Below the pieces are notes generated by a model. The model was not told where the DNA came from. It worked only from the letters and a program-made list of their open reading frames with translations, and made no database searches. A program made the translations under genes and the position numbers. From a virus (Duplodnaviria; Heunggongvirae; Uroviricota; Caudoviricetes), in IMG/VR virus record IMGVR_UViG_2529292997_000008, positions 1 to 38,707 of that record: a stretch of DNA of 38,707 bases; one strand, written 5' to 3'. How positions within the stretch are numbered: position 1 is the stretch's first letter; every line of letters starts with the position of its first letter. Shown piece by piece: positions 130-12,140 of the stretch.

Positions 130-330
130 TCAGGGACTTGTTCGCACCTTCCTTAAGTGTTTAATTGTCTCAGGCAAGCATCCTGCTTCGTCATATTCCG
201 CTGATAATCCTGTTTTCTGGCGTAACTGCTGCATTGTGTCGATGCCATCCAGTTCAAGGATGTTGATAATTTTTGTTTCAAGTTCAATGCTCATTGTTTT
301 TAGCCTCAATTTAAGCGCGAAAACAGCCAC
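130..330 (-). CDS. hypothetical small protein downstream of helicase gene
   Basis: 66-codon ORF in track, same orientation as replication operon; no recognisable motifs; alternative internal start at 294. Confidence 0.3.
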   Translation of the reverse strand: MAVFALKLRLKTMSIELETKIINILELDGIDTMQQLRQKTGLSAEYDEAGCLPETIKHLRKVRTSP

Positions 331-373
331 CAGAAAGCGGTAAACTTTCCGGTAAGCCGTTTGCTCAAGTTAA

Positions 374-1795
374 TTAAAAAGATGCTTTATTCTGGTTGTT
401 TCGTGGCGAGAATCGGCTTACCGCCGGACGTTGTTGCATTGACTGGATGCAAGCTGACGCCGCGCGGGCCTGGTCACACGGTAATATGTTGCCGTTGTCG
501 TCAAAACGCTGGTAAACAGTCCCGGTTTTTCCGTGACGGTTTTTTGAAACGATAATCTCCATGTATTCGCGTGCAACAGATTGTTCGTTGTAGTAGCCGT
601 CGCGGTATACCATGATGATCCGGTCTGCGTCCTGTTCAAGATTGCCGGAATCGCGCAGATCAGAATTGTTCGGTCGCTTGTTCGGTCGTTCCTCGACGCG
701 GCGGGATAATTGCGCCAGCGCCGCCACTGGTACGCGCAATTCTTTCGCCATCATTTTCAATGACCACGACAATTGCCCTACAGCGAGATCGTGACGTTCT
801 GCCTTAGCCAGCTTCATTAACCCGATGTAGTCAATCATTACCATACCCAGGTTGGGATAATCCTGCTTCATTCGTTCAGTTGTGGCGCGTATTTCCTCGA
901 CAGTTAACTGTGATGCATCAACAATCCACACATCGAGATCAGCAAGTGCGCTCATTCCCTGGGCAACGTGCGCCCATCCTTCGTCATCCAGTTTTACCGG
1001 ATTACGTAAGCAATCCGTTGACAAATTCCCTGCGCCAGCGATAGCGCGTTCAGTCATCTGATCGAGCGACATTTCAAGCGTGAACAGCAAAACGCCGACC
1101 CGCTGACCTTCGCCTCCAGGGTATGGGCGTTCAGCCGCCGCGCGGGCAATTGCCAACGCCAACGCCGATTTACCAGACCCTGGGCGTCCGGCGATAAGCA
1201 CCAGATCAGTAGCGTTAATGCCGCCTAACATTTCGTCGAGTGGGTCAATCCCTGTTTTGATGTTGTCAGAGTTCACGCCACACTCCATGCGTTTACTTAA
1301 CACTTCCGTGTATTCCTGGACCGCATCGCGCAACAGCACCGGGATAATTTGATCTTTTGTTACCTTTAATTTTGAATACCGGGAATCAAAATCTTTCATC
1401 GTCTCCCTGACGACTTCAAGCGTCCCTGTTTCCAGCTTGTAGCGAATGTCTTCCATTAGTTCCAGCATTTGCCGACGCTGGTGTTCTTCCTGTAGTAGTT
1501 GCGCATATCCTTTCAGGTTGGCAGCAGAAGGGCACGATCGTGCCGTTTGCATTAGCGGTACAAAGTTTTCATTGCCAATCTCATCGCCAACCAATAACGC
1601 GTCGATAAGATTTCTGTTTCTGGCTTGCGCCCGGATAACTTCAAACGCACGTTTATAAAGCGGGATCGTGAACACTTCAGGATCAAGTGTGGCGAGAACA
1701 TCTTGCGCGTTAGGAGTAAGGCCACCTAACAGTAGCCCGCCGATAACTGACGCTTCACGTTCCTGCCGTAGTGAGTTTATTTGCTCAGTTACCAT
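374..1795 (-). CDS. replicative DNA helicase, DnaB family
   Basis: 473 aa; Walker A GRPGSGKSALAL, DnaB-like N-terminal and RecA-like C-terminal layout; GGAGG RBS upstream of ATG at 1795. Confidence 0.9.
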   Translation of the reverse strand: MVTEQINSLRQEREASVIGGLLLGGLTPNAQDVLATLDPEVFTIPLYKRAFEVIRAQARNRNLIDALLVGDEIGNENFVPLMQTARSCPSAANLKGYAQLLQEEHQRRQMLELMEDIRYKLETGTLEVVRETMKDFDSRYSKLKVTKDQIIPVLLRDAVQEYTEVLSKRMECGVNSDNIKTGIDPLDEMLGGINATDLVLIAGRPGSGKSALALAIARAAAERPYPGGEGQRVGVLLFTLEMSLDQMTERAIAGAGNLSTDCLRNPVKLDDEGWAHVAQGMSALADLDVWIVDASQLTVEEIRATTERMKQDYPNLGMVMIDYIGLMKLAKAERHDLAVGQLSWSLKMMAKELRVPVAALAQLSRRVEERPNKRPNNSDLRDSGNLEQDADRIIMVYRDGYYNEQSVAREYMEIIVSKNRHGKTGTVYQRFDDNGNILPCDQARAASACIQSMQQRPAVSRFSPRNNQNKASF

Positions 1796-1813
1796 TATGT
1801 TATTGCCTCCGGT

Positions 1814-2932
1814 TTACAAAATGGAATATTCAGGGTAATAAACAAAGCGCCCAATTTCCCCATGATCCGGGCTGTAAATAATCACCGCTGCCAGACGCCG
1901 CGACCGCCAGCCGCCATTAGTTGAATATGCGTCTTTGCCAGCTAATGTGCCGTGGTGCTCAACTATTCCAAGTGATGTTTCAACAACTGATTGATGGTGC
2001 AGATGTCCAGTGTGAGCGTAAACAGCCACAGACCTTCCGAAATCCTCCCGCCAGTCAGCTACGCAAGCAGACAATAAATTTTCCGGCTTTTTGATAGTGT
2101 GCCCGTGGTGGTAAGCAAGGAATGTTTTGCCATACTGTGTGTGGTGGACAATGGCAGGTGACACGTCAACAGTCACGCGCGGCTCATCTTCGTAAAAAGC
2201 CGCAAGCGCAGCACGTAGCCAGATCATACCTGATTGGTCGTGATTACCGGATAATACCTGGATCTCGACATCCTTATGATTTAGTAACATCTTCCCGACC
2301 GCACGCCGGACCGACCGGATCGCCACATAAACCAGTTTTGCGTAGCGTGAATCACAATCTAAAACGTGATTACTTGATGGCGTCACTGGTAACAGGCCGT
2401 CAGTGTGAAGCACATCACCGCCGAGAAGTAAAACAGCTTTTTCAGACATCGGAGCAGCGCCAACAGCGTAGTCAAAGAAGTCATTCAACACGCGCTCAGC
2501 GATCCCAGTATCGTAGCTCTCACCGCATTCAGCTTTATGAGCAAGCGCCCCGATATGCAGATCAAACACCGGATAAAGTGCCAGGCTTTTTTGAAAATCA
2601 ATTTCAGGCACTGGCACAGCCTCCGCGCGTGGTATTTCATCAGTGAAAGCGTCGCGGGCCGCTTCCATTAGCTGTTCCATTTCTTCGCGGTCACGGGCTG
2701 TTTTAATCCAGCGCATGATAACATTGCCGTTCTTATCGACTAGCAACGACTCGCCATTGACGCCAAAACCAGGAGCGCGGCGTGTTGATAATAAACCACG
2801 TTTCGCCAGTTTTGCGCCCAGGCGCTCGACATTGCGTTTTGACATGCCATATTTTTCAGCAATCTGCTTGTACGTTAAACCGTTGTTATATTCAGCGATC
2901 AATTGCTCATCGCTGATTTTTCTTTGCGACAT
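1814..2932 (-). CDS. HTH domain protein fused to calcineurin-like metallophosphoesterase
   Basis: 372 aa; N-terminal HTH (LTYKQIAEKYGMSKRNVERL); metallophosphatase motifs DLH, GGD, GNHD, HHGH, GHLHH in canonical order; GAGGA RBS. Confidence 0.6.
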   Translation of the reverse strand: MSQRKISDEQLIAEYNNGLTYKQIAEKYGMSKRNVERLGAKLAKRGLLSTRRAPGFGVNGESLLVDKNGNVIMRWIKTARDREEMEQLMEAARDAFTDEIPRAEAVPVPEIDFQKSLALYPVFDLHIGALAHKAECGESYDTGIAERVLNDFFDYAVGAAPMSEKAVLLLGGDVLHTDGLLPVTPSSNHVLDCDSRYAKLVYVAIRSVRRAVGKMLLNHKDVEIQVLSGNHDQSGMIWLRAALAAFYEDEPRVTVDVSPAIVHHTQYGKTFLAYHHGHTIKKPENLLSACVADWREDFGRSVAVYAHTGHLHHQSVVETSLGIVEHHGTLAGKDAYSTNGGWRSRRLAAVIIYSPDHGEIGRFVYYPEYSIL

Positions 2933-2966
2933 AATGTTAATTCCTCAGGTTTACATTTTGTATACA

Positions 2967-4022
2967 TCAGGATATAGCACAACGAAAAAACTTGCACCCC
3001 AAATAATCCTCAATGCGTTTTTGTCTTATCGCATCGCTTTTTGCTTGCCGTTTGTGATGTGATTCATCAATTTCTACAGCAATATTATTCACAAGATCGT
3101 AGCCATCAATAAAATACTTGTTGCCAGCAACATTAACAGGATATTGCCTTATTAATTTAACTCCTTTTAGTTTTTCGTACATAGTTAATCCAGCATGTTC
3201 ATAACGCTTCCTAATCATATTTTTACAATTATAACTCATTTCTGATAATTTCTCGTCACATTCCCTTTTTATTTCCTCAATTACATTCTTGTCGCTTTTT
3301 AATTCAATAAAGTTTTCTATGTCGTTATAATTACCGCATTCAAAATTATTACTAAGACCTTTATTTTGACCCCATGTATGATACTTTTCCGCTATCTTAT
3401 CGCTAATATATCTTTCATATCCATAATTTGTTTTAACTGTAAAATATTCAATATTTAAATCAATGGTAAACTCATCATTATTAAGATGTTCATTTAAAAA
3501 CGTATCTGGATCTGCAATATCGCTTGAATGAAACAACCTTACCCATAGTTTTTCTATTGATACTCCGCGAGTAACGAACAACCATTTTTTATACTTTTCA
3601 GCATCTTCCTTTGACACATACACAGAGCATCGCCCGGGAGTATCACTAGTTTCAACATAGTTGTTACACCATAAAACATAATTATAAGCATAAGGACTAT
3701 CTTTTCTGGTATTATTTGAATATTTATTAAACACATCTTGTAAATCAACTAATCCACAAGATTCAATAACTGGCTTAACCCAATTTTCATTATATTCATA
3801 ATGTCTATATTTACCAGGTGTAACGAATCTAATAAACGTTATAGGTGTGATATACACATCATCACCATCAATAATAAAATCCTTGTATTCCTCAAATCCG
3901 TAAAGATCAGAGTATTTAACAAATGATTTAAGCCTATCGATTTCAAGTTCAGAAACAAGATTATTAACAGATAGTAATTGCGTGTCCTTACAATTTAGTT
4001 TCACATGATAAGTGGCAATCAT
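2967..4022 (-). CDS. low-GC accessory protein with C-terminal DUF559/Vsr-like (PD-(D/E)xK) endonuclease-type motif
   Basis: Track ORF 2967..4103 trimmed to ATG at 4022 preceded by AAGAGG; 351 aa; markedly AT-rich versus flanks; C-terminus FIDGYDLVNNIAVEIDESHH..DAIRQKRIEDYLGCKFFR fits pattern aIE.DG..HH...D..R...L...G..v.R. Confidence 0.6.
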   Translation of the reverse strand: MIATYHVKLNCKDTQLLSVNNLVSELEIDRLKSFVKYSDLYGFEEYKDFIIDGDDVYITPITFIRFVTPGKYRHYEYNENWVKPVIESCGLVDLQDVFNKYSNNTRKDSPYAYNYVLWCNNYVETSDTPGRCSVYVSKEDAEKYKKWLFVTRGVSIEKLWVRLFHSSDIADPDTFLNEHLNNDEFTIDLNIEYFTVKTNYGYERYISDKIAEKYHTWGQNKGLSNNFECGNYNDIENFIELKSDKNVIEEIKRECDEKLSEMSYNCKNMIRKRYEHAGLTMYEKLKGVKLIRQYPVNVAGNKYFIDGYDLVNNIAVEIDESHHKRQAKSDAIRQKRIEDYLGCKFFRCAIS

Positions 4023-4175
4023 ATGTACCTCTTTTCTTAATTTTATATATAACGCCTCAGACGTGCTACAACGCAAAAATCCCACCGCGTAACCCGTTTG
4101 CACAGGTTGCAGTGTCTTATTGCGTCAGAGGCGCTCTCAGGTGGCTAATTTTTGATTTACAGGCTGGTATGAAGG

Positions 4176-4277
4176 TTATGGATTGATAAGAAGGAACAAA
4201 CCGCCGAACAAAGCGACGTTAACAGCGATTGCAGCAGCGATGGCAAAGGCCAGGGCGAAAACGTGTTTACCGTCCAT
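4176..4277 (-). CDS. small hydrophobic peptide (33 aa, single predicted TM helix)
   Basis: MDGKHVFALAFAIAAAIAVNVALFGGLFLLINP; ATG with GAGAGGA RBS; not in track (<60 aa). Confidence 0.3.
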   Translation of the reverse strand: MDGKHVFALAFAIAAAIAVNVALFGGLFLLINP

Positions 4278-4410
4278 TTTAAAATCCTCTCTAAAACGCT
4301 CTATAACGAGCTAAATAGCTAAAGATATGCAATCGTAGCACCATGCGTGTTTTAGCTCGCTGGTGAGGTTGTTTTGTGGGTAATTTTGGATTTTTGCGAA
4401 TCGTGGTTGG

Positions 4411-5463
4411 TCAAAGAGCGCCTGCGCGTGTGTCGCGTAGCGTTTTTGGTTTAAGCAGGAAATCAAGTGTCGCTGTGAAGCCATTGCCGAAGTAAAAATC
4501 TGAAGCCGTGTTTTTGAATGTTTCGAAGTAGGCGACAAAGCCGTTAATGCTTTTGTCTTTCAGGTAGTCAGTGAACGCATAGATCTTGCGTTCAAGATCC
4601 CGATCCAGTTCGACAGGTGGTAACAGGCCGTCAAACGTGCTGTTAAATGCTTCCACCACGTCGGCAGCGTTTGCAGTGGCTGACAGTTTGCGCCATTGTT
4701 CAGCATCAGTCAGATACCCATCAAATTTAGTTACCCGGCAAATATTGATAGGCTTAGGTGTTCCACCACGGCTACGCCATTGCGTTAAAGCCCACTCAAT
4801 CACTAATGTGATCTCATCCTCCGTATACGCTTTACGTGTTTTTGTTTCTGTCAGTAGTTCGATGAATGGCTTCGCATCACGACATTTGCATCCTGCCTTG
4901 TCGTTGTAGAAGGCCAGGCAACGCAACGCCGCTTCGTTTACGCCATCATGATTGACCATTTTTTGTTCATTTTCGACAATACACGAAGTGTATATATCTT
5001 TTTCTCTTTCTTCTTCTACTTCTAATTCTAATTCATGACCCTTTCCTGACCCGGTCATGACCCTATCATGACCTTTTTGTGTTGGATTGATTAACTTTTC
5101 TAATTTTAATTGCTCCTTAGCTGTGTTTATGGCGGCCCTGTACGCGCTTTTAGAAGTCATTGATTGGTCAAGCCTTTTCAATAACTTTAAACAAGTTATG
5201 TGGCCTTGAGAACATTCAAACAAACCAATTTCGATGAAGTATTTCATCATTTCTTCTATACGTTTTTCAGTCGATCCGACGTTTCGCGCAATGATTCTCG
5301 CGTCATGTCGTAGGTCAAAAGTCAGATTGTGCTGATCTACGTCATAAGTTATTAGTTCGAGGCAATACCAATAAAGCCCGTACCCTTCCAGGCCATAATC
5401 TAACAAAACGTTTTGAAGTTTTTCATCGCGGTTCGCATCGCTGTCATGCTTAAACCACTTCAT
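4411..5463 (-). CDS. replication initiation protein, phage replisome-organizer N-terminal type
   Basis: 350 aa; N-terminus MKWFKHDSDANRDEKLQNVLLDYGLEGYGLYWYCLELI resembles replisome organizer N-domain; acidic linker; GGAGGG RBS; start overlaps upstream stop. Confidence 0.65.
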   Translation of the reverse strand: MKWFKHDSDANRDEKLQNVLLDYGLEGYGLYWYCLELITYDVDQHNLTFDLRHDARIIARNVGSTEKRIEEMMKYFIEIGLFECSQGHITCLKLLKRLDQSMTSKSAYRAAINTAKEQLKLEKLINPTQKGHDRVMTGSGKGHELELEVEEEREKDIYTSCIVENEQKMVNHDGVNEAALRCLAFYNDKAGCKCRDAKPFIELLTETKTRKAYTEDEITLVIEWALTQWRSRGGTPKPINICRVTKFDGYLTDAEQWRKLSATANAADVVEAFNSTFDGLLPPVELDRDLERKIYAFTDYLKDKSINGFVAYFETFKNTASDFYFGNGFTATLDFLLKPKTLRDTRAGAL

Positions 5464-5466
5464 AGA

Positions 5467-5724
5467 TCATCCCTCCGGCAACATCACTACATAGACATCA
5501 CTGAATGCATCAAGACGACAAACAAATCCTTTATCCATTAACGCGGCGAAGGCATCATGTACCGTATGAACAGGAAGTTCACACATTGCGGCTACTTCTT
5601 TGCGTGATGCATCATGTACCCGTCCTTTGTTATCTGCCTTTTCAGCCAGAGCCATTAAGACAAGTTTTTGAATCGGGCTATTAAGTTTTACGTTCCATGC
5701 TTTACTAATCATGTTTATACTCAT
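5467..5724 (-). CDS. small winged-helix DNA-binding protein at Cro/CII position
   Basis: 85 aa from ATG at 5724 with AGGAGA RBS (the 111-aa track version needs a TTG start); first gene of leftward operon divergent from cI. Confidence 0.5.
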   Translation of the reverse strand: MSINMISKAWNVKLNSPIQKLVLMALAEKADNKGRVHDASRKEVAAMCELPVHTVHDAFAALMDKGFVCRLDAFSDVYVVMLPEG

Positions 5725-5833
5725 CGCATTTTCTCCTATGGTTAGAGTGAACGCGCGGGCGGGCATCCCATTAGCATTAGATAGCAGTGACTGACCGCTC
5801 AACAGATCCCGCCGTTGCGTGATATTTGTTTTT

Positions 5834-5867
5834 CGCTTCGCAGCGACACCGGATTTTTAAAGAGCAT
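5834..5867 (-). promoter_or_regulatory. candidate nut-like site (boxA TGCTCTTTAAAAA plus boxB-like hairpin CGCU-GCGA-AGCG) in leftward leader
   Basis: Read on minus strand; boxA 11-12/13 to rrn/lambda boxA consensus, followed 8 nt later by 4-bp stem with GNRA-type loop. Confidence 0.35.
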
Positions 5868-6029
5868 AAGGTAAGTGCCTTTTTGTGCCTTCCGTTATCT
5901 TTTTCCTTGCGTCTTTGCAAGTATGGCCTTACCTTGTCTGCAAGTTTACAAAATGGAATTTTAAGATCAAGGCTTAAAATACACGTTTTGTGACTTGCAT
6001 CAAACTTTTTGAGGTTATAGGGTAGCGAC

Positions 6030-6677
6030 ATGAAAACAAAATGGTATGACTTAGCAAAGCAGCTCATGCGGGCGCAGGGCATGAGCCAGGATTCGCTCGC
6101 GGATCGTATGGGGATAACTAAAGGCGGCCTGTCACACTGGCTGAACGGTCGCCGAGAGCCAAATCTTGAAGATATTGCGCGGATTATGCGCGAGCTTGGT
6201 CGTCGGCAGTTTACTGTTACACATGATGGCATGGTCATTGATGATTCTGTTTCTAATACACTTCAGGCCGTGCCGCCGCGTGATTTAGGTAGTTACCCGG
6301 TTATTGACTGGAAGGACACAGTAAACAATATGGATGACGCAAGGCGTTCAGCATTACGACACGTTACGACTAGCGTTATTTGTTCAGATGACAGTTACTG
6401 GCTGGTTGCCAAAGGTGAATCAATGAACGCGCCGCAGGGGTTGAGCATCCCGGCGGGGACGATGATACTTGTGGACCCGCACGCGCCAGCTATTGACGGC
6501 AAACTGGTTATAGCCCAGCTTGAGGAAGGGCAGATACCGACGTTTAAACAGTTGATTATTGATGGAGGTCAAAGGCTTTTACGTTCGCTCAATCCGCTGT
6601 ATCCGCCAATCCCTATGAATCCAGAATCAAAAATTATAGGCGTGGTGGTTGATGCGAAGATCGTAAACCTGCCATAA
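6030..6677 (+). CDS. CI-type prophage repressor (HTH-XRE N-domain, LexA-like S24 peptidase C-domain)
   Basis: 215 aa; HTH QDSLADRMGITKGGLSHWLNGRR; C-domain with GESM serine motif and downstream Lys-containing segment; GAGG RBS. Confidence 0.85.
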   Translation: MKTKWYDLAKQLMRAQGMSQDSLADRMGITKGGLSHWLNGRREPNLEDIARIMRELGRRQFTVTHDGMVIDDSVSNTLQAVPPRDLGSYPVIDWKDTVNNMDDARRSALRHVTTSVICSDDSYWLVAKGESMNAPQGLSIPAGTMILVDPHAPAIDGKLVIAQLEEGQIPTFKQLIIDGGQRLLRSLNPLYPPIPMNPESKIIGVVVDAKIVNLP

Positions 6678-6684
6678 ACATTAG

Positions 6685-6708
6685 CCGCCGAATGGCGGCT
6701 TTTCTTTG
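6685..6708 (+). terminator. rho-independent terminator after repressor gene
   Basis: GCCGCC-GAAT-GGCGGC hairpin followed by TTTTCTTTG. Confidence 0.7.
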
Positions 6709-6800
6709 CCTGGGAAACACCAAAACGTAAACAGAAAACGTTATTTATTATTTAAATATCAATGGCATATAAAATATTTTAAAAAAGTATACAAAATGGA

Positions 6801-6829
6801 TTGACTCGATGTTTTACGGGGCGTATATT
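6801..6829 (+). promoter_or_regulatory. sigma70-like promoter (PL-analogue) driving rightward early operon
   Basis: TTGACT-17 nt-TATATT; TACAAAATGGA motif immediately upstream (6790-6800). Confidence 0.5.
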
Positions 6830-7082
6830 GCGAGTCAAAGGAAGGGCGCAGGTAACAAAAGCAACTTCCTGGCACTTTAAAAATCAGGCTTAACACCTTG
6901 TCAACCGTGGAGTAACTCCCCGATGGGGGACCGAAAGCGGCACTGATAACAAGGCGCATGGGGTGTTTAAAGCGTTACATCCCCCACGAAACCGCACGCA
7001 AGGCGACGAGTCAGCTTGCTTGGAGTGAGCAAGGTCACGCCGGGAACGGCGATGATTGCGGGATTAGTTGAAAGATGTTAAG

Positions 7083-7120
7083 CCGCTCATTAACAATCTG
7101 GTCAGCCGCTGGAAGTGCGG
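7083..7120 (+). promoter_or_regulatory. candidate nutL-like site (boxA CGCTCATTAACAA, boxB-like hairpin GCCGC-UGGAAGU-GCGGC)
   Basis: boxA 11/13 to consensus, 11-nt spacer, 5-bp stem hairpin; about 60 nt upstream of N-like ORF. Confidence 0.45.
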
Positions 7121-7177
7121 CAATTAACGAAGATGATTTTTTATTAAGTATCATCAAGGATATACGGAGATCAGATT

Positions 7178-7468
7178 ATGAGCGTTACAATTATATATGG
7201 TAAATGTGATAGCAAAATGAATGCCAGGGAACGCAGAAGGATAAAAAGAGAAAACGAAAGAAAATCATCACCTGCAATCAATAAAACAGACAATGTGGAT
7301 AAAGCTATTCGATTTGCAAACGAGGAAAGATGCAAACCAAATAGCATTAAAGAACGTCGCAAAGGATCAGTAAAATGGTATACGGAAAATGAAAGCGGCA
7401 GCTACTACCACGCAACGCAACCACGCCATTTAGGGGAAAAACCCCTGGATAAAGTCCGCTACCATTAA
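7178..7468 (+). CDS. N-like transcription antiterminator candidate (arginine-rich motif protein)
   Basis: 96 aa, basic; N-proximal ARM NARERRRIKRENERK; first gene after PL-like promoter and nut-like site. Confidence 0.5.
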   Translation: MSVTIIYGKCDSKMNARERRRIKRENERKSSPAINKTDNVDKAIRFANEERCKPNSIKERRKGSVKWYTENESGSYYHATQPRHLGEKPLDKVRYH

Positions 7469-7498
7469 TACAAAATGTAAACATCCGGAGATGACATT

Positions 7499-7621
7499 AT
7501 GGTTATTCAGGCGCTTCAATTCAAACTGGCAGTAGCGGAAATGCTTCACGATGCCGAAATGTGGAGCGCCGCGAATAAAGCCTTATACATAGTGTTAACA
7601 GCACGGGAGATTAAATGGTGA
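7499..7621 (+). CDS. small ORF (40 aa)
   Basis: ATG with GGAG RBS, preceded by conserved 15-mer ATACAAAATGTAAAC cassette; overlaps erf start. Confidence 0.35.
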   Translation: MVIQALQFKLAVAEMLHDAEMWSAANKALYIVLTAREIKW

Positions 7622-8259
7622 AAACAGAGTTACATAAAAAGCTATGGACGATTCAGCAAACGCTGAACGCGCCGAAAAATCAGCGTAATAATTTTGGTGG
7701 ATATAATTACAGGTCGGCGGAGGATATTTTAGAGGCGGTTAAACCACTGCTTCAAAATATCACGCTGACTGTTAGTGATGAAATTGTCCTGATCGGCAAT
7801 CGCTATTATGTGAAAGCAACGGCGACGCTAAGCGACGGTGAAGACGTAATAGCGGTAACTGCTTATGCCAGGGAGGAAGAAAACAAGAAGGGTATGGACG
7901 CCAGCCAGCTAACAGGAGCAACATCAAGTTACGCGCGTAAATATGCTTTGAACGGTTTATTCTGTATAGATGATGCTCGCGATCCTGATACTGATGCTTA
8001 CGCGAAGCAGACAGGCCAGCAGCCGCGACAACAGAAAAACCCACCAAAACAACAACCGCAGCAGAAGAAAGCGCCGCCAAATCCTGATGAAGTATTAGCA
8101 CGTTTCTGTGATGCAGCAGCGAAAGCGCAGGACGCTAACAAGCTGCGTGAAATATTTGGCAAATGCTGGAAATTACTACCGGAAGGATCGGAACATCGAA
8201 TCAAGGCAAAAGATGTTTATGACATCCGGGTCGCAGAGCTTAACGGGGAGATGGGTTAA
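7615..8259 (+). CDS. erf: ERF-family single-strand annealing recombinase
   Basis: 214 aa; N-terminal ERF-like core, Q/P-rich linker, C-terminal domain; GGGAGA RBS. Confidence 0.8.
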   Translation: MVKTELHKKLWTIQQTLNAPKNQRNNFGGYNYRSAEDILEAVKPLLQNITLTVSDEIVLIGNRYYVKATATLSDGEDVIAVTAYAREEENKKGMDASQLTGATSSYARKYALNGLFCIDDARDPDTDAYAKQTGQQPRQQKNPPKQQPQQKKAPPNPDEVLARFCDAAAKAQDANKLREIFGKCWKLLPEGSEHRIKAKDVYDIRVAELNGEMG

Positions 8260-8678
8260 TGAGTTTGAATTCAATTACGCTGGGCGGGAATATCGGAAAC
8301 GACATGGAAGTTCGCTACACGCAAAACGGTAAAGCGATTGGTAGTTTTCCGTTAGCTGTAACGAATGGCTACGGTGATAACAAGCGGACAATGTGGATCA
8401 CTTGCCTGGTATTTGGTGAGCGTGCGGAAAAATTAGCGCCACATATCCGCAAGGGTGGAAAAATAGTGGTAAGCGGTCGCCTGGATGTTCGGCAATATGA
8501 CCGGAACGACGGCACGAAGGGGACTGCGGTAGAAGTGGCGGTTAATGAATTTGAATTCATGAATGTTAACCAACAAGGCCAGCAGCAAGGACAGCAGCAG
8601 AAAGCGCCGCCGCAGCAGCAGAATAATAACGGGAATAATCCGCCTCCGATGGACTTCGACGACGATATTCCTTTTTAG
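8259..8678 (+). CDS. ssb: single-stranded DNA-binding protein
   Basis: 139 aa; OB-fold core, Gln/Gly/Pro-rich linker, acidic C-terminal tail DFDDDIPF. Confidence 0.9.
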   Translation: MSLNSITLGGNIGNDMEVRYTQNGKAIGSFPLAVTNGYGDNKRTMWITCLVFGERAEKLAPHIRKGGKIVVSGRLDVRQYDRNDGTKGTAVEVAVNEFEFMNVNQQGQQQGQQQKAPPQQQNNNGNNPPPMDFDDDIPF

Positions 8679-8694
8679 AATCAATGTGTTAGCG

Positions 8695-8973
8695 ATGAGT
8701 GATTATCTAAAACCGCCGCCGCAACCACGAACAAAAGAGCAAGTATTAAAAGAAGCCCGCGATCAAATCGATCGCGGGCTTTTTTTATGCGGCACGGCAG
8801 CGGAACGGATGGCAAAAAGATTTAGTGACCTGTACGCAAAACAAATATGGTTCGACAACTGGCAGGCAAGTTTTTATCCGCTGCAAAGAAAACCGGATAT
8901 GCATTGGCCTGAATATGTCGATCCGCGTATGCGCAAATATCGCGGGCGTATGGGCCAGGTTATTAACGATTAA
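8695..8973 (+). CDS. hypothetical protein
   Basis: 92 aa from first ATG after ssb stop; co-directional compact operon. Confidence 0.5.
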   Translation: MSDYLKPPPQPRTKEQVLKEARDQIDRGLFLCGTAAERMAKRFSDLYAKQIWFDNWQASFYPLQRKPDMHWPEYVDPRMRKYRGRMGQVIND

Positions 8974-8987
8974 TGAGGTATTAAATC

Positions 8988-9212
8988 ATGATCGAAGATA
9001 AAGAAGTTGACAATGAAATTCCTGACGGCGCTGATGAACTTATCACTTTCGGTGGCGGGCTGTACGAGTTTGAAACGTCGGCTGGGTGGACGGATAAGTG
9101 GCCTTTCCCAACGCGCCAGGAATTAAGCGTTCGTAAATCATTTGGCGAAGATGCCGAACGGCTGGCTAATAACAAGTGGCTTAATAAGTTTATTGCGGAG
9201 GGTGGCAAATGA
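8988..9212 (+). CDS. hypothetical protein
   Basis: 74 aa; GAGG RBS. Confidence 0.5.
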   Translation: MIEDKEVDNEIPDGADELITFGGGLYEFETSAGWTDKWPFPTRQELSVRKSFGEDAERLANNKWLNKFIAEGGK

Positions 9213-9322
9213 ACCTTGCAAAAATTGCCGCATTGCTTGCGGCTTTGTCTATCGCTGTGCTGTATCTCAGCGCATCTCTTTATATCACGGCAGCGATCAT
9301 TAAACTCATTACTAACATGTGA
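9209..9322 (+). CDS. small hydrophobic peptide (37 aa)
   Basis: MNLAKIAALLAALSIAVLYLSASLYITAAIIKLITNM; GGAGGGTGG RBS; ATGA overlap with upstream stop. Confidence 0.4.
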   Translation: MNLAKIAALLAALSIAVLYLSASLYITAAIIKLITNM

Positions 9323-9330
9323 GGCCAATT

Positions 9331-9450
9331 ATGAAAGTCGGTAAGGATATTGTGACTGTCGCGTTTTGCATTATTTGCTTCCTGTTTGTGTTTGTTTCTT
9401 GTGGCGCATTTGCTGCGCTGGTTAGCTTTATTTTCAGAGGGTTGCTGTGA
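9331..9450 (+). CDS. small hydrophobic peptide (39 aa)
   Basis: MKVGKDIVTVAFCIICFLFVFVSCGAFAALVSFIFRGLL; GAGG RBS; stop overlaps next start. Confidence 0.4.
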   Translation: MKVGKDIVTVAFCIICFLFVFVSCGAFAALVSFIFRGLL

Positions 9451-9722
9451 TGAAAACATGGGATGCAAAGTCTGGTGATCTTGTCGTGTTGCCTGAATAT
9501 CGTGATGACCCTGGCCTGGTTGTACTGAATAAGATGTATAACGATCTCGAGCGCCCGCTAGTGGTTAAATACCTGGACGGAACAATCATCGAACCGCGCT
9601 ACTTTGATGATATTGAACTGAAGGCCCGCAATGTTCGCGTTAAGCCGTTCCGGGCTTATGCTGAAAACCACTGGCGGAAATTGTTCGCCGGACTGAATGG
9701 GATGTTCGGCGTATGGCTATAA
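9447..9722 (+). CDS. hypothetical protein
   Basis: 91 aa track ORF, overlapping start/stop with neighbours. Confidence 0.5.
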   Translation: MMKTWDAKSGDLVVLPEYRDDPGLVVLNKMYNDLERPLVVKYLDGTIIEPRYFDDIELKARNVRVKPFRAYAENHWRKLFAGLNGMFGVWL

Positions 9723-9904
9723 AATTGGTGAAAGTTAAAGATTTAAAAGGCGGCGAAAAGATCCGAACGTGGTATGGGTATAAATTTATCATAGCTGCCT
9801 TTTCTTTTGGGCCTGGTGGTCAGGTAACATTATTTGACGAGGAAGATGATGAGGTGGGTCAATGGCATCTTGAACAATATGTTGAGGTGTTAAATGAAAA
9901 TTAA
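9713..9904 (+). CDS. hypothetical protein
   Basis: 63 aa track ORF. Confidence 0.45.
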   Translation: MAIKLVKVKDLKGGEKIRTWYGYKFIIAAFSFGPGGQVTLFDEEDDEVGQWHLEQYVEVLNEN

Positions 9905-10226
9905 ATTCCATAAAGCATATGATAGCGAAACAAACAAGCTATCACTATTTATCGAATTCGAACGCCGGATCGTGGTTGTGCCCTGGGCGCGGCGCTTCAA
10001 TGACGCTGGCGGACGTAGACAATTCGCGGTCGATATGCTGTTACGCGGCTGCGGCCTTATGCGTCCGCTATCTGATTTAAAACGAATGATGCCGGGATCG
10101 TTCGGTCAGATTGATGAAATAGAAATAAGCCCGGAAGAACTGAAACGGGAGCGTGATTTATTCCTTTCAAGCGAAGGAAACCCGTTTAATTCAGAAACTG
10201 AAATGAAATGGCATCACCCACTATAA
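9894..10226 (+). CDS. hypothetical protein
   Basis: 110 aa track ORF. Confidence 0.5.
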   Translation: MKIKFHKAYDSETNKLSLFIEFERRIVVVPWARRFNDAGGRRQFAVDMLLRGCGLMRPLSDLKRMMPGSFGQIDEIEISPEELKRERDLFLSSEGNPFNSETEMKWHHPL

Positions 10227-10239
10227 AAGGATAAATATC

Positions 10240-10860
10240 ATGAACGACATCAAAACAGCTTACTCTCTCGGTAATGAAGGTATGTTGATCACTCGCTATA
10301 CAGATGATGCAAACTTTCACGAAGTGGAAATTAAAGATTATCACGAAGTATTGAAAGATATGGAAGCTGGCGCGTATGACGCTGATTTGAATCTGGCGCT
10401 ACAGGTTGTTGATATTGTGATGGGTGCGTCAATCCGCGATTACGTGTCTTTAAGTATGGAAGAAAAAACATCGGTAGCGCGTTATGTATTCTCTCTTACT
10501 TTTGTGAAGCGCATGGAGGAAGAATTCGGACGCGTACCAGTGCCGGAAGAGGTTGATCCGCTCGCGTTCGGAAGTGCTGTCATTTTCCCGTTGAACAAGG
10601 AACAGCTTGGTAGTGTTTCACTGCATTCTATGCGCGTCCTGATGAAAAATATCTTTGAGGTTAAGATGTTGCAGAAATGCATTGAGGAAGGCCACAAAGA
10701 GGAAGAAGTAAAAGCGCTCATGCCATTGTTTTACGGTGAAATGGTTGGCAATGATATGCGTGCAAATGATTTCGGCGTACAGGCGGCTATCGCTGTGCTT
10801 AATTACGCACGGAAAAACGCACAGCCGACGCCTGAACAGGGAAAACGTGTACTGCATTAA
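10240..10860 (+). CDS. hypothetical protein (206 aa)
   Basis: Long ORF with RBS; no motif recognised. Confidence 0.6.
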   Translation: MNDIKTAYSLGNEGMLITRYTDDANFHEVEIKDYHEVLKDMEAGAYDADLNLALQVVDIVMGASIRDYVSLSMEEKTSVARYVFSLTFVKRMEEEFGRVPVPEEVDPLAFGSAVIFPLNKEQLGSVSLHSMRVLMKNIFEVKMLQKCIEEGHKEEEVKALMPLFYGEMVGNDMRANDFGVQAAIAVLNYARKNAQPTPEQGKRVLH

Positions 10861-10959
10861 CCGAGTAATTCCGATCACATAAATATACATTTTGTATTGT
10901 GATTGTATATCCGTTTTGTAAGCCGAAATCAAAAGGTTTACGGTGCGGAGGAAGCAAAA

Positions 10960-11178
10960 ATGGAACGCGAATTGATGCTTTATTGCGTAGAAGGTGGCGT
11001 AGGTCACGATGCCTACGTCGCCGGGAAAGACTATCCAGCCGATGAAGTGCTTTCTAATATGCACTTCAGAGAAAATGAAAGCCAGGTGTCTGTGTGGAAA
11101 CGGTGTATTGATGGTATTGAGGTTGTAAGTATCGAACGGTATTTAGGCACGTTTGATTACGGTGTTATTGAGGCTTAA
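10960..11178 (+). CDS. hypothetical protein
   Basis: Track ORF 10903 trimmed to ATG with GGAGGAAG RBS; preceded by motif-bearing intergenic region. Confidence 0.45.
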   Translation: MERELMLYCVEGGVGHDAYVAGKDYPADEVLSNMHFRENESQVSVWKRCIDGIEVVSIERYLGTFDYGVIEA

Positions 11179-11180
11179 TT

Positions 11181-11273
11181 ATGGACGATACATTGTTTTA
11201 TATGTGCTGTTTCTGGGGTTTTATTGCCTTATACCTGTTTATCAGGTGGTTTATTGAATACCATATGAGGTAA
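11181..11273 (+). CDS. small hydrophobic peptide (30 aa)
   Basis: MDDTLFYMCCFWGFIALYLFIRWFIEYHMR; GAGG RBS. Confidence 0.3.
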   Translation: MDDTLFYMCCFWGFIALYLFIRWFIEYHMR

Positions 11274-11276
11274 TGT

Positions 11277-11471
11277 ATGGAACAAGAAACTGATTATCGA
11301 ATACCTGATAGCCTAAAATTAGTTGGCATTGGTTTCGGGTGTAGATTTGTATCTGACGCAAAAGGAGCGATTTATTTAATACGTCTTATTGATGGCGTTC
11401 AACATATAAGGAGATTAGGAATTTACATCAAAGCATTCAGAAGAGGTTATTTAAAAACTCATGAAATTTAA
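11277..11471 (+). CDS. hypothetical protein
   Basis: 64 aa track ORF. Confidence 0.45.
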   Translation: MEQETDYRIPDSLKLVGIGFGCRFVSDAKGAIYLIRLIDGVQHIRRLGIYIKAFRRGYLKTHEI

Positions 11472-11664
11472 ACATTACATGGAATGGAAAATTCCAGAAG
11501 CAGCAACAAAGGCAGCGCCAGGAAATTTTTCTGGCGTTTATTTTTATATGGATGGCAAATGGTATTTCGGCAGCAGGCCGGATCACTACTATCAAGAAAT
11601 ATGCAAGCCTCACGTATGGGATATTAAAGAGCGCGTGAAAGGCGGGGTAATTGAGGACGTTTAA
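11461..11664 (+). CDS. hypothetical protein
   Basis: 67 aa track ORF. Confidence 0.45.
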   Translation: MKFKHYMEWKIPEAATKAAPGNFSGVYFYMDGKWYFGSRPDHYYQEICKPHVWDIKERVKGGVIEDV

Positions 11665-11665
11665 A

Positions 11666-11902
11666 ATGCTTAAGAGCTTTTTTAACTGGTTGGGGGCGTG
11701 GCTTTTGGCTACGCTTTTTGTTTTCCTGGCGGCCCTGACTGTTATCGGTGTTATTATGCTGGGGGCTATGTTTATTACGTGGTCGCTTCCTGAATTTAAC
11801 GACATTGGGAATATTCTTTTTGCAGCCCGCGCTTTATTGGCTGTTAGCGCATTCATTGGTTTTTGCTGGACTGCCGCGCCGGATTGGACTGACACATGGT
11901 GA
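11666..11902 (+). CDS. membrane protein (2 predicted TM helices)
   Basis: Track ORF trimmed to ATG after GAGGA RBS; hydrophobic segments. Confidence 0.5.
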   Translation: MLKSFFNWLGAWLLATLFVFLAALTVIGVIMLGAMFITWSLPEFNDIGNILFAARALLAVSAFIGFCWTAAPDWTDTW

Positions 11903-11906
11903 TCCT

Positions 11907-12140
11907 ATGGCCTTATTCAATATGTCAGAGCCGCAATTTAACGCCGTAAAGACTGCCGCCCGCGCCGCGCTTTCGGCCTGCAAAGCGGAGGTAGAGAAGA
12001 ACGGCTACAGCGATAAAGCCACGCGGCTGATACTCGACAAGCATTATCGCAAGGTCGCCCCGCTAATCAGCATTGAGCGTTTTGTGTGGTTGGTGGGGTA
12101 TCTGAATAACCGCTGGGGGACGGAGCAGGATTATTTCTAA
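11907..12140 (+). CDS. hypothetical protein
   Basis: Track ORF 11748 trimmed to in-frame ATG after previous stop. Confidence 0.45.
   Translation: MALFNMSEPQFNAVKTAARAALSACKAEVEKNGYSDKATRLILDKHYRKVAPLISIERFVWLVGYLNNRWGTEQDYF

Follow-up and report, generated by a model that had tools for sequence, protein, structure and literature searches.

A helix-turn-helix metallophosphoesterase beside the replicative helicase of an mEpimmI-type coliphage prophage: a candidate DNA nuclease of the T1 gp16 family

Introduction

What does a metallophosphoesterase (MPE) do inside a phage replication operon, and does it belong to the replication machinery at all? The question is raised by a gene in IMG/VR record IMGVR_UViG_2529292997_000008, a Caudoviricetes sequence that we analyzed over its whole length of 38,707 nucleotides (positions 1 to 38,707; hereafter the window). 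The gene encodes a protein in which an N-terminal helix-turn-helix (HTH) is joined to an MPE catalytic domain. A first-pass annotation, made from the sequence alone, had seen it as occupying the place of a helicase or helicase loader in a lambdoid replication module, and had proposed that it dephosphorylates a host protein, hydrolyzes a nucleotide signal or acts in replication. None of these three roles proved to be the best supported one. The evidence presented here favors a stand-alone DNA nuclease that is tethered by its HTH and plays an accessory role, a reading in which DNA is the presumed substrate and to which we assign a probability of roughly one half.

Results and discussion

The gene encodes an intact metallophosphoesterase behind a putative DNA-binding module

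The open reading frame (ORF) spans positions 1814-2932 (minus strand); it has an ATG start and codes for 372 amino acids plus the stop codon. The ORF list, PHROG and BLASTP matches and the ratio of nonsynonymous to synonymous substitution rates (dN/dS) identify it as a complete HTH-MPE gene of the T1 gp16 / Bas01_0050 / PHROG 704 family, whose members share an architecture of HTH, conserved beta-hairpin and MPE domain over 370-440 amino acids. Against the orthologues of phages mEp554 and mEp021, dN/dS is 0.06-0.12, and the ORF is therefore a real gene under selection. An AlphaFold2 model built from a 78-sequence alignment (mean predicted local distance difference test score, pLDDT, 85.5; predicted template modeling score, pTM, 0.73) divides the protein into a three-helix bundle (residues 8-44), a beta-hairpin (60-77) followed by a helix (79-98), and an MPE sandwich (114-372), the predicted fold being that of the beta-sandwich MPEs. 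Together with the profile matches, the model bears out the domain layout given in the first-pass annotation.

The catalytic domain (residues 114-372; positions 1814-2593, minus strand, as for all parts of the gene) contains each of the five motifs that had been listed before (DxH, GD, GNHD, HHGH and GHxH), and these are the motifs that are conserved in the homologues. We followed them through 150 representatives, a set at 50% identity. Motif I, D124-L-H126 (2555-2563), provides metal ligands, with the aspartate found in 147 and the histidine in 148 of the representatives. In motif II, G172-D173-V-L-H176 (2405-2419), the bridging D173 is invariant and H176, a GDxxH histidine as in Mre11, is present in 145. 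N230 and H231 of motif III, G229-N230-H231-D232 (2237-2248), are invariant, as is H276 of motif IV, H275-H276-G277-H278 (2099-2110). Motif V, G309-H310-L-H312 (1997-2008), has an invariant glycine and second histidine, while H310 is retained in 141 representatives and replaced by aspartate in 6. D124, H126, D173, N230, H231, H276 and H312 are also invariant, and H310 nearly so, in 58 diverse homologues, and the same eight residues are invariant or nearly invariant in the 78-homologue alignment. They correspond to the seven metal ligands and the catalytic histidine of MPEs, all of which the window protein possesses. A check for active-site degeneracy thus returned intact residues in the window protein and all eight positions kept in 140 of the 150 representatives, the rest being fragments or carrying single substitutions such as H310D. 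An active site that is intact and constrained across homologues, taken together with the dN/dS values, argues that the enzyme is almost certainly catalytically active.

Between motifs II and III lies a loop that is specific to the family (T184-P185...D192-x-D194-x-R196; residues 184-196, positions 2345-2383). Its residues are invariant or nearly so and its pLDDT in the AlphaFold2 model is low (59-71); we consider it a candidate substrate-binding element.

On its own, the window protein gave no Metallophos match and only sub-threshold HTH matches in Pfam and NCBIfam; PF00149 (Metallophos) is matched by 10 of 58 relatives (best E = 5.8e-5) and PF12850 by 7 of 58, the window protein matching neither. 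Sequence and profile searches of the PDB returned no significant match for the MPE part, and a structure search of BFVD returned only uncharacterized phage MPEs. The nearest structural neighbors of the window MPE are nucleases.

The N-terminal domain (residues 1-55; 2768-2932) is a basic three-helix HTH with helices at residues 8-16, 21-28 and 32-44, as judged from the AlphaFold2 model and profile matches, and has an isoelectric point of 10.3. For the window protein itself, the Pfam matches to Rrf2, Sigma70_r4_2, HTH_IclR and HTH_28 were all below threshold. The family profile matches GerE over the HTH region with an E value of 0.017, and the N-termini of family members match Sigma70_r4_2, GerE and HTH_23 with E values down to 1.5e-9. 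At least 40 residues precede the conserved core in 142 of the 150 representatives, with HTH matches of many types. These profiles indicate a basic, putative DNA-binding module that is retained across the family yet drifting or swapped. It is followed by a family-specific segment (residues 56-113; 2594-2767), defined by the AlphaFold2 model and by conservation, which comprises the hairpin with its conserved residues G60, S62, G69, W75 and K77, the long helix and a linker. W75 is kept in 141 representatives.

The protein belongs to a large phage family linked to DRT7 defense

We found that the gene is an ordinary addition to a large, known, biochemically uncharacterized phage family and not a novelty of this replication module. 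The window protein matches PHROG 704 ("DNA repair exonuclease") with an E value of 8.5e-140, residues 4-368 aligning to positions 2-387 of the 390-column profile. An exhaustive HMMER search yielded 4,391 clusters at 50% identity with E <= 0.001, of which 953 had E <= 1e-30, and 2,048 of 50,697 phage records have a homologue by tblastn, among them T1-like Drexlerviridae, Klebsiella weberviruses, Jersey-like Salmonella phages, and Vibrio, Campylobacter, Flavobacterium and roseobacter phages. Several of these groups (T1-like, Jersey-like, webervirus, Vibrio and Campylobacter phages) include phages used in therapy work. Database labels for the family have so far been "DNA repair exonuclease", "phosphoesterase", "putative phosphoesterase" or "hypothetical protein". 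Our literature search found no published biochemical study of the T1 gp16-type family, in agreement with the earlier statement that the function of the protein is unknown.

The best-documented relatives are gp16 of T1 (58% identity over the full length, BLASTP E = 7e-158) and Bas01_0050 of the BASEL phage Bas01, AugustePiccard (56% identity over the full length, E = 6e-152). Both have the same HTH, beta-hairpin and MPE architecture and the same catalytic residues in 376-377 amino acids compared to 372 here. The carriers differ: T1 and Bas01 are virulent Drexlerviridae in which the gene lies upstream of the lysis cassette, whereas the window phage is temperate (mEpimmI) and has it between initiator and DnaB helicase.

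Bas01_0050 has been described as "a putative nucleic acid-targeting phosphoesterase" in a preprint of February 2026 in which spontaneous Bas1 escapers of the reverse-transcriptase defense DRT7 (UG10) had this gene altered by missense or frameshift mutations, and in which its expression in E. coli could not be achieved because the protein was too toxic (bioRxiv 10.64898/2026.02.16.706125). In the same study, lambda escapers of DRT7 had lost gam (bioRxiv 10.64898/2026.02.16.706125). The frameshift escapers are viable, and Bas01_0050 is reported to be dispensable in this T1-like phage. Toxicity and DRT7 escape were measured on Bas01_0050, and we infer that they carry over to the 56%-identical window protein.

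The same observations bear on the proposal that the protein is a counter-defense phosphodiesterase that destroys immune nucleotide messengers (cyclic oligonucleotides, cyclic nucleoside monophosphates) or other small nucleotides. Under DRT7, a phage that loses the orthologue gains from it instead of being harmed, and the orthologue by itself is toxic. A DNA-binding HTH is, moreover, hard to reconcile with a small-molecule substrate, and A1 of phage T5 is now tied to DNA degradation (see below). PADLOC returned no match either, Calcineurin-CE effectors included insofar as they are modeled there: 0 families at E values up to 0.01 for the window protein in the PADLOC-DB from 2023, with newer families outside this release, and we rejected the protein as a PADLOC defense component. 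We therefore give the destruction of nucleotide signals a low probability.

Other phage metallophosphoesterases provide precedents for action on DNA

The active site of the window protein resembles that of Mre11 and SbcD, from which it is otherwise distant: identity is ~15-17%, and the family profile reaches the Mre11/SbcD entries of the PDB with E values of 0.9-2.8 over motifs I-II only. Neither Mre11 nor SbcD has the N-terminal module of HTH and beta-hairpin.

A functional precedent comes from T5 A1, a predicted metallophosphatase that is toxic and both necessary and sufficient for degradation of the host chromosome (bioRxiv 10.64898/2026.04.02.716235). Like the window protein, A1 is a stand-alone phage MPE; it is a pre-early protein and, like Bas01_0050, toxic alone. 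It differs in being larger (556 amino acids) and essential, with an MPE domain starting at about residue 300 (motif I, G303-D304-x-H306). T5 encodes a separate DNA-binding partner, A2, as well as a deoxynucleoside monophosphate (dNMP) phosphatase nearby. We additionally observed that A1 relatives outside the Demerecviridae (~530 amino acids, 46-48% identical; P0462, P0464, P0465, P0492 and P0504) carry an N-terminal HTH at residues 6-45. It is of the HTH_23, HTH_38, HTH_7 or CENP-B_N type, whereas T5 A1 itself has a different N-terminus. Since A1 and the T1 gp16 family show no homology beyond the superfamily, the HTH-MPE architecture either evolved or persisted in two distinct families of phage MPEs, of which one (A1) acts on DNA in vivo. 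A second precedent within the MPE superfamily is gp48 of mycobacteriophage A10ZJ24, a cluster A MPE with all five motifs. This protein is toxic, its degradation of DNA has been seen both in vitro and in vivo, and the phage can do without it in some hosts (PMC12287305). Its residue numbering (D10, D41 and H175) implies that, unlike the window protein, it has no N-terminal HTH extension.

The comparison with lambda NinI (PP-lambda) that had been suggested with the first-pass annotation pointed away from a protein phosphatase. A NinI-like enzyme would act as a Ser/Thr/Tyr phosphatase on host proteins; both proteins belong to the MPE superfamily, the NinI gene lies in an early or nin region, and one lambdoid prophage does carry a member of the present family in its nin region. 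However, the PPP signatures (GDxHG, GDxVDRG and GNHE) are absent from the window protein and its structural score against NinI is much lower. Lambda NinI, in addition, is not known to have an HTH. This candidate was rejected, and its probability is close to negligible.

The gene is a portable accessory and probably not a replication factor

The location of the gene had been described as between the replication initiator and the helicase. The helicase side of this description stands: the MPE gene is co-oriented with the gene of a DnaB-type replicative helicase (374-1795, minus strand; Pfam DnaB_C E = 2e-75, DnaB N-terminal domain E = 8e-12), whose start lies 18 nt from the MPE stop codon. On the other side, a 378-amino-acid ORF (2967-4103) separates it from the initiator. 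This arrangement is present in 35 of 5,426 complete E. coli genomes, always with the DnaB helicase gene next to the MPE gene, and the slot upstream of the MPE gene varies among mEp021, mEp554 and related prophages, holding a DUF559 gene, a zinc-ribbon gene, a gene for a KilAC antirepressor-domain protein or others.

Only in the mEp phage group does the gene have its place within a replication module. In T1, Bas01, mar001J1 and the weberviruses, the family gene ends a DNA-metabolism operon directly before the lysis genes; in Jerseyvirus, it is found between tail genes. In one lambdoid prophage it sits in the nin region before an HNH gene and Q; in metagenomic phages and one Vibrio phage, it adjoins endolysin genes. 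SP6-like Era103 has it in the DNA-metabolism gene region, and an N4-like Vibrio phage near a virion RNA-polymerase-like gene; both are places in the early or middle part of the genome. The differing contexts between phage lineages show that this is a portable accessory gene and not a replacement of a helicase loader, contrary to what its location had suggested. We also looked for a universal conserved partner gene and rejected this idea, as neighbors differ by lineage and the most recurrent association, the phosphatase and kinase cassette described below, is not universal.

A replication factor could in principle bring the phage DnaB-type helicase to the origin or load it there, with the HTH bound to DNA and the MPE domain as a protein scaffold, or process origins or replication intermediates. 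The adjacency to the helicase gene is what this proposal builds on, but strict conservation of the catalytic residues argues against a scaffold role, the family is found in phages of differing replication systems and away from helicase genes, and frameshifts in the T1-like orthologue leave the phage viable. P22-type modules, which consist of an initiator and a DnaB-like helicase, are not known to need a loader. Neither helicase-loader families (lambda P, DnaC/IstB-like) nor an AAA+ domain were matched in Pfam, NCBIfam or PHROGs, and the helicase loader was rejected as a candidate. Overall, we see only a very slight chance for a replication factor; the strictly conserved catalytic residues, the gene's portability and the absent signatures largely exclude both this role and that of a NinI-like phosphatase.

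A recurrent nuclease, phosphatase and kinase cassette

In three unrelated phage lineages, the MPE gene is directly followed by a gene for a stand-alone PNKP-type HAD phosphatase and then by one for a P-loop kinase. This three-gene cassette comprises gp26-28 of Era103 (locus L010, 3998-6244), gp51-53 of Yersinia phage vB_YenM_574 (L011, 3989-6281) and the corresponding genes of Klebsiella weberviruses, as in phage K2alpha62 (L015, 3498-5729). The phosphatase matches PF25109 (HAD_PNKP) above threshold with E values of 5e-17 to 9e-19 and has a DxDGT motif, and the kinase corresponds to PHROG 139 ("dNMP kinase", E = 1e-46). In T1 the three genes are all present but unlinked (ST16, ST64 and ST62); Bas01 has the kinase but lacks the HAD phosphatase.

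In bacterial Pnkp, an MPE domain acts with a phosphatase and a kinase in end healing. The cassette speaks for viewing the family as nucleic-acid end-healing phosphoesterases, which would strip 3'-phosphates, 2',3'-cyclic phosphates or other blocks from broken DNA or RNA, repair damage inflicted by defense nucleases, and have a PNKP-type 3'-phosphatase and a 5'-kinase as their partners. In Era103 the cassette is followed by the gene of an ATP-dependent DNA ligase, and a survey of jumbo phages notes calcineurin-like domains in RNA-repair contexts (PMC7824862). On closer inspection, however, the kinase partner matches a dNMP-kinase family (PHROG 139) rather than a polynucleotide kinase, and the Era103 ligase gene (gp24 homologue) belongs to the SP6-like core and lies outside the inserted cassette. 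The HAD phosphatase is absent from the window phage and from Bas01, and neither toxicity nor escape from defense upon loss would be expected of a repair enzyme. We consider end healing unlikely, although it is the weightiest of the alternatives; next come the destruction of nucleotide signals, a part in replication or helicase loading, and a NinI-like phosphatase, in this order.

A DNA-directed nuclease is the best reading of the evidence

Taken together, the constrained active site, the basic HTH, the nucleases among the structural neighbors, the toxicity and dispensability of the orthologue, the parallel with Gam, the precedents of T5 A1 and gp48, and the neighboring genes for nucleotide or DNA-end metabolism make a DNA-directed nuclease the best reading. 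In the proposed mechanism, the protein would be a metal-dependent (probably Mn2+) DNA nuclease of the MPE superfamily with an active site like that of Mre11/SbcD, held on DNA by its small basic HTH. As an accessory and not a core replication gene, it would be co-transcribed with the replication genes as part of the early rightward operon and, after induction or infection, might cut the host chromosome, free DNA ends or replication and recombination intermediates. In a T1-like phage, it is the orthologue that renders the phage visible to DRT7. In several lytic relatives, the nuclease, the PNKP-type HAD phosphatase and the dNMP-kinase-like kinase could form a route for DNA breakdown and nucleotide salvage or, alternatively, for end processing. 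Breakdown of the host chromosome with salvage of its nucleotides is an attractive model for the virulent relatives.

Several observations weigh against a DNA-directed nuclease. The capping domain of Mre11/SbcD is absent from the window protein, which has just 60 residues after motif V, and a Rad50/SbcC partner was found neither in the window operon nor among the annotated genes of mEp554, mEp021, T1, Bas01 and the other loci examined. Family-level homology to T5 A1 was rejected, as hhalign gave a probability of 27.8% over 60 columns between motifs II and III. The HAD_PNKP and kinase neighbors fit end healing as well as salvage, and the window region holds neither of them. The toxicity of Bas01_0050 could have a cause other than DNA cleavage, and that DNA is the substrate of the T1 gp16-type family is something we infer from the combined evidence. 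Finally, destruction of the host chromosome from an early operon would conflict with lysogeny. In the temperate window phage, it is more plausible that the nuclease would be directed at ends or at replication and recombination intermediates, or that its activity is tightly limited.

T1 has a classical, unmapped function in host-DNA degradation, and gp16 may correspond to it; a literature search on host-DNA degradation by T1 returned nothing relevant. A broader and doubtful proposal is that thousands of phages might rely on T1 gp16-type HTH-MPEs as their chief nuclease for degrading host DNA or attacking ends, and that these would be the first enzyme of a portable nuclease, PNKP-type phosphatase and dNMP kinase cassette, triggering DRT7/UG10 through their DNA products or through interference with RecBCD-type end processing. 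If this were true, the protein would be a functional counterpart of lambda Gam in the DRT7/UG10 pathway and, in temperate mEp-type phages, an early nuclease that is under regulation and built into the replication operon.

What gives these findings their value is the family, with its abundance, its DRT7 link and its recurrent cassette, rather than the single locus described here. If the substrate were known, one DRT7 trigger would be explained and the recurrent cassette clarified, and it could be tested whether MPE nucleases are a general phage weapon against host DNA, as T5 A1 and mycobacteriophage gp48 would suggest. For such work, the temperate mEp phages provide a tractable system in E. coli K-12, where the prophage can be induced.

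The host element and the surroundings of the gene

Contrary to the earlier assumption, the element that carries the gene is not lambdoid. Window bases 153-11998 are 87-89% identical to phages mEp021, mEp554, mEp010, mEp013, mEp044 and mEp515, which places it with the mEpimmI-type (mEp021/mEp554) temperate coliphage prophages by sequence. Phages of the mEp021/mEp554 type have been described as "mEpimmI", Nus-dependent, non-lambdoid temperate coliphages (PMC11893012). The closest protein match of the window MPE is mEp554_11 (95% identity), labeled "hypothetical protein".

Upstream of the MPE gene, a Shine-Dalgarno-like GAGGA can be read at 2942-2946 (minus strand), 9 nt before the ATG. The 378-amino-acid ORF that follows at 2967-4103 (minus strand) has a GC content of 30% compared to ~48% in the surrounding region, and its last ~60 residues contain a DUF559/Vsr-like endonuclease motif (PF04480, E = 1.4e-4; PADLOC mREase_II, E = 2.4e-7). 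It looks like a horizontally acquired moron with an endonuclease fold and is a possible defense gene. The replication initiator, an O-like protein with a Lin1244_N domain (PF14297, E = 6.9e-11; PHROGs 20981, 428 and 345), is encoded at 4411-5463 (minus strand). Beyond it, a gene for a small HTH protein (5467-5802, minus strand, as the MPE gene) faces a divergent cI-like repressor gene at 6030-6677. Because a promoter and terminator scan of the region gave site counts that were not above those in shuffled sequence, co-transcription is deduced from gene spacing and orientation only.

With regard to the MPE gene in other phages, we observed HNH homing-endonuclease genes directly beside it in many unrelated genomes (L004, 3081-3584; L008, 42028-42510; L009, 39208-39693; L005, 9137-9709; L012, 1720-2028; L013, 5208-5717; L002, 5421-5906). 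Such flanking genes are typical of conserved DNA-metabolism genes. In phiJLA23, Salmonella phage 36, Jk06 and RDJL Phi 1, the MPE gene is apparently in pieces. The flanking HNH genes and the split MPE genes suggest that the gene is a frequent target of mobile endonucleases. Additionally, a DNA methyltransferase gene is located a few genes away in the same operon in T1-like phages, a roseobacter phage and mEp021 (L008, 39024-39737, T1 dam; L002, 3950-4675; L015, 1882-2613; L014, 5091-5894; L004, 1-574).

At the left end of the window, an IS5 element contributes its end (bases 1-155), which shares 99% identity with the IS5 copies in the P1 and 434 records. The insertion lies ~220 bp downstream of the helicase stop codon and severs the continuation of the operon that is present in mEp554 (genes 09 to 03 and the integrase); the prophage may therefore be disrupted. 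Just past the helicase stop codon, near the IS5 junction, a 12-pair stem-loop with a T-run is found at 327-355 (minus strand), a possible terminator of the early rightward operon.

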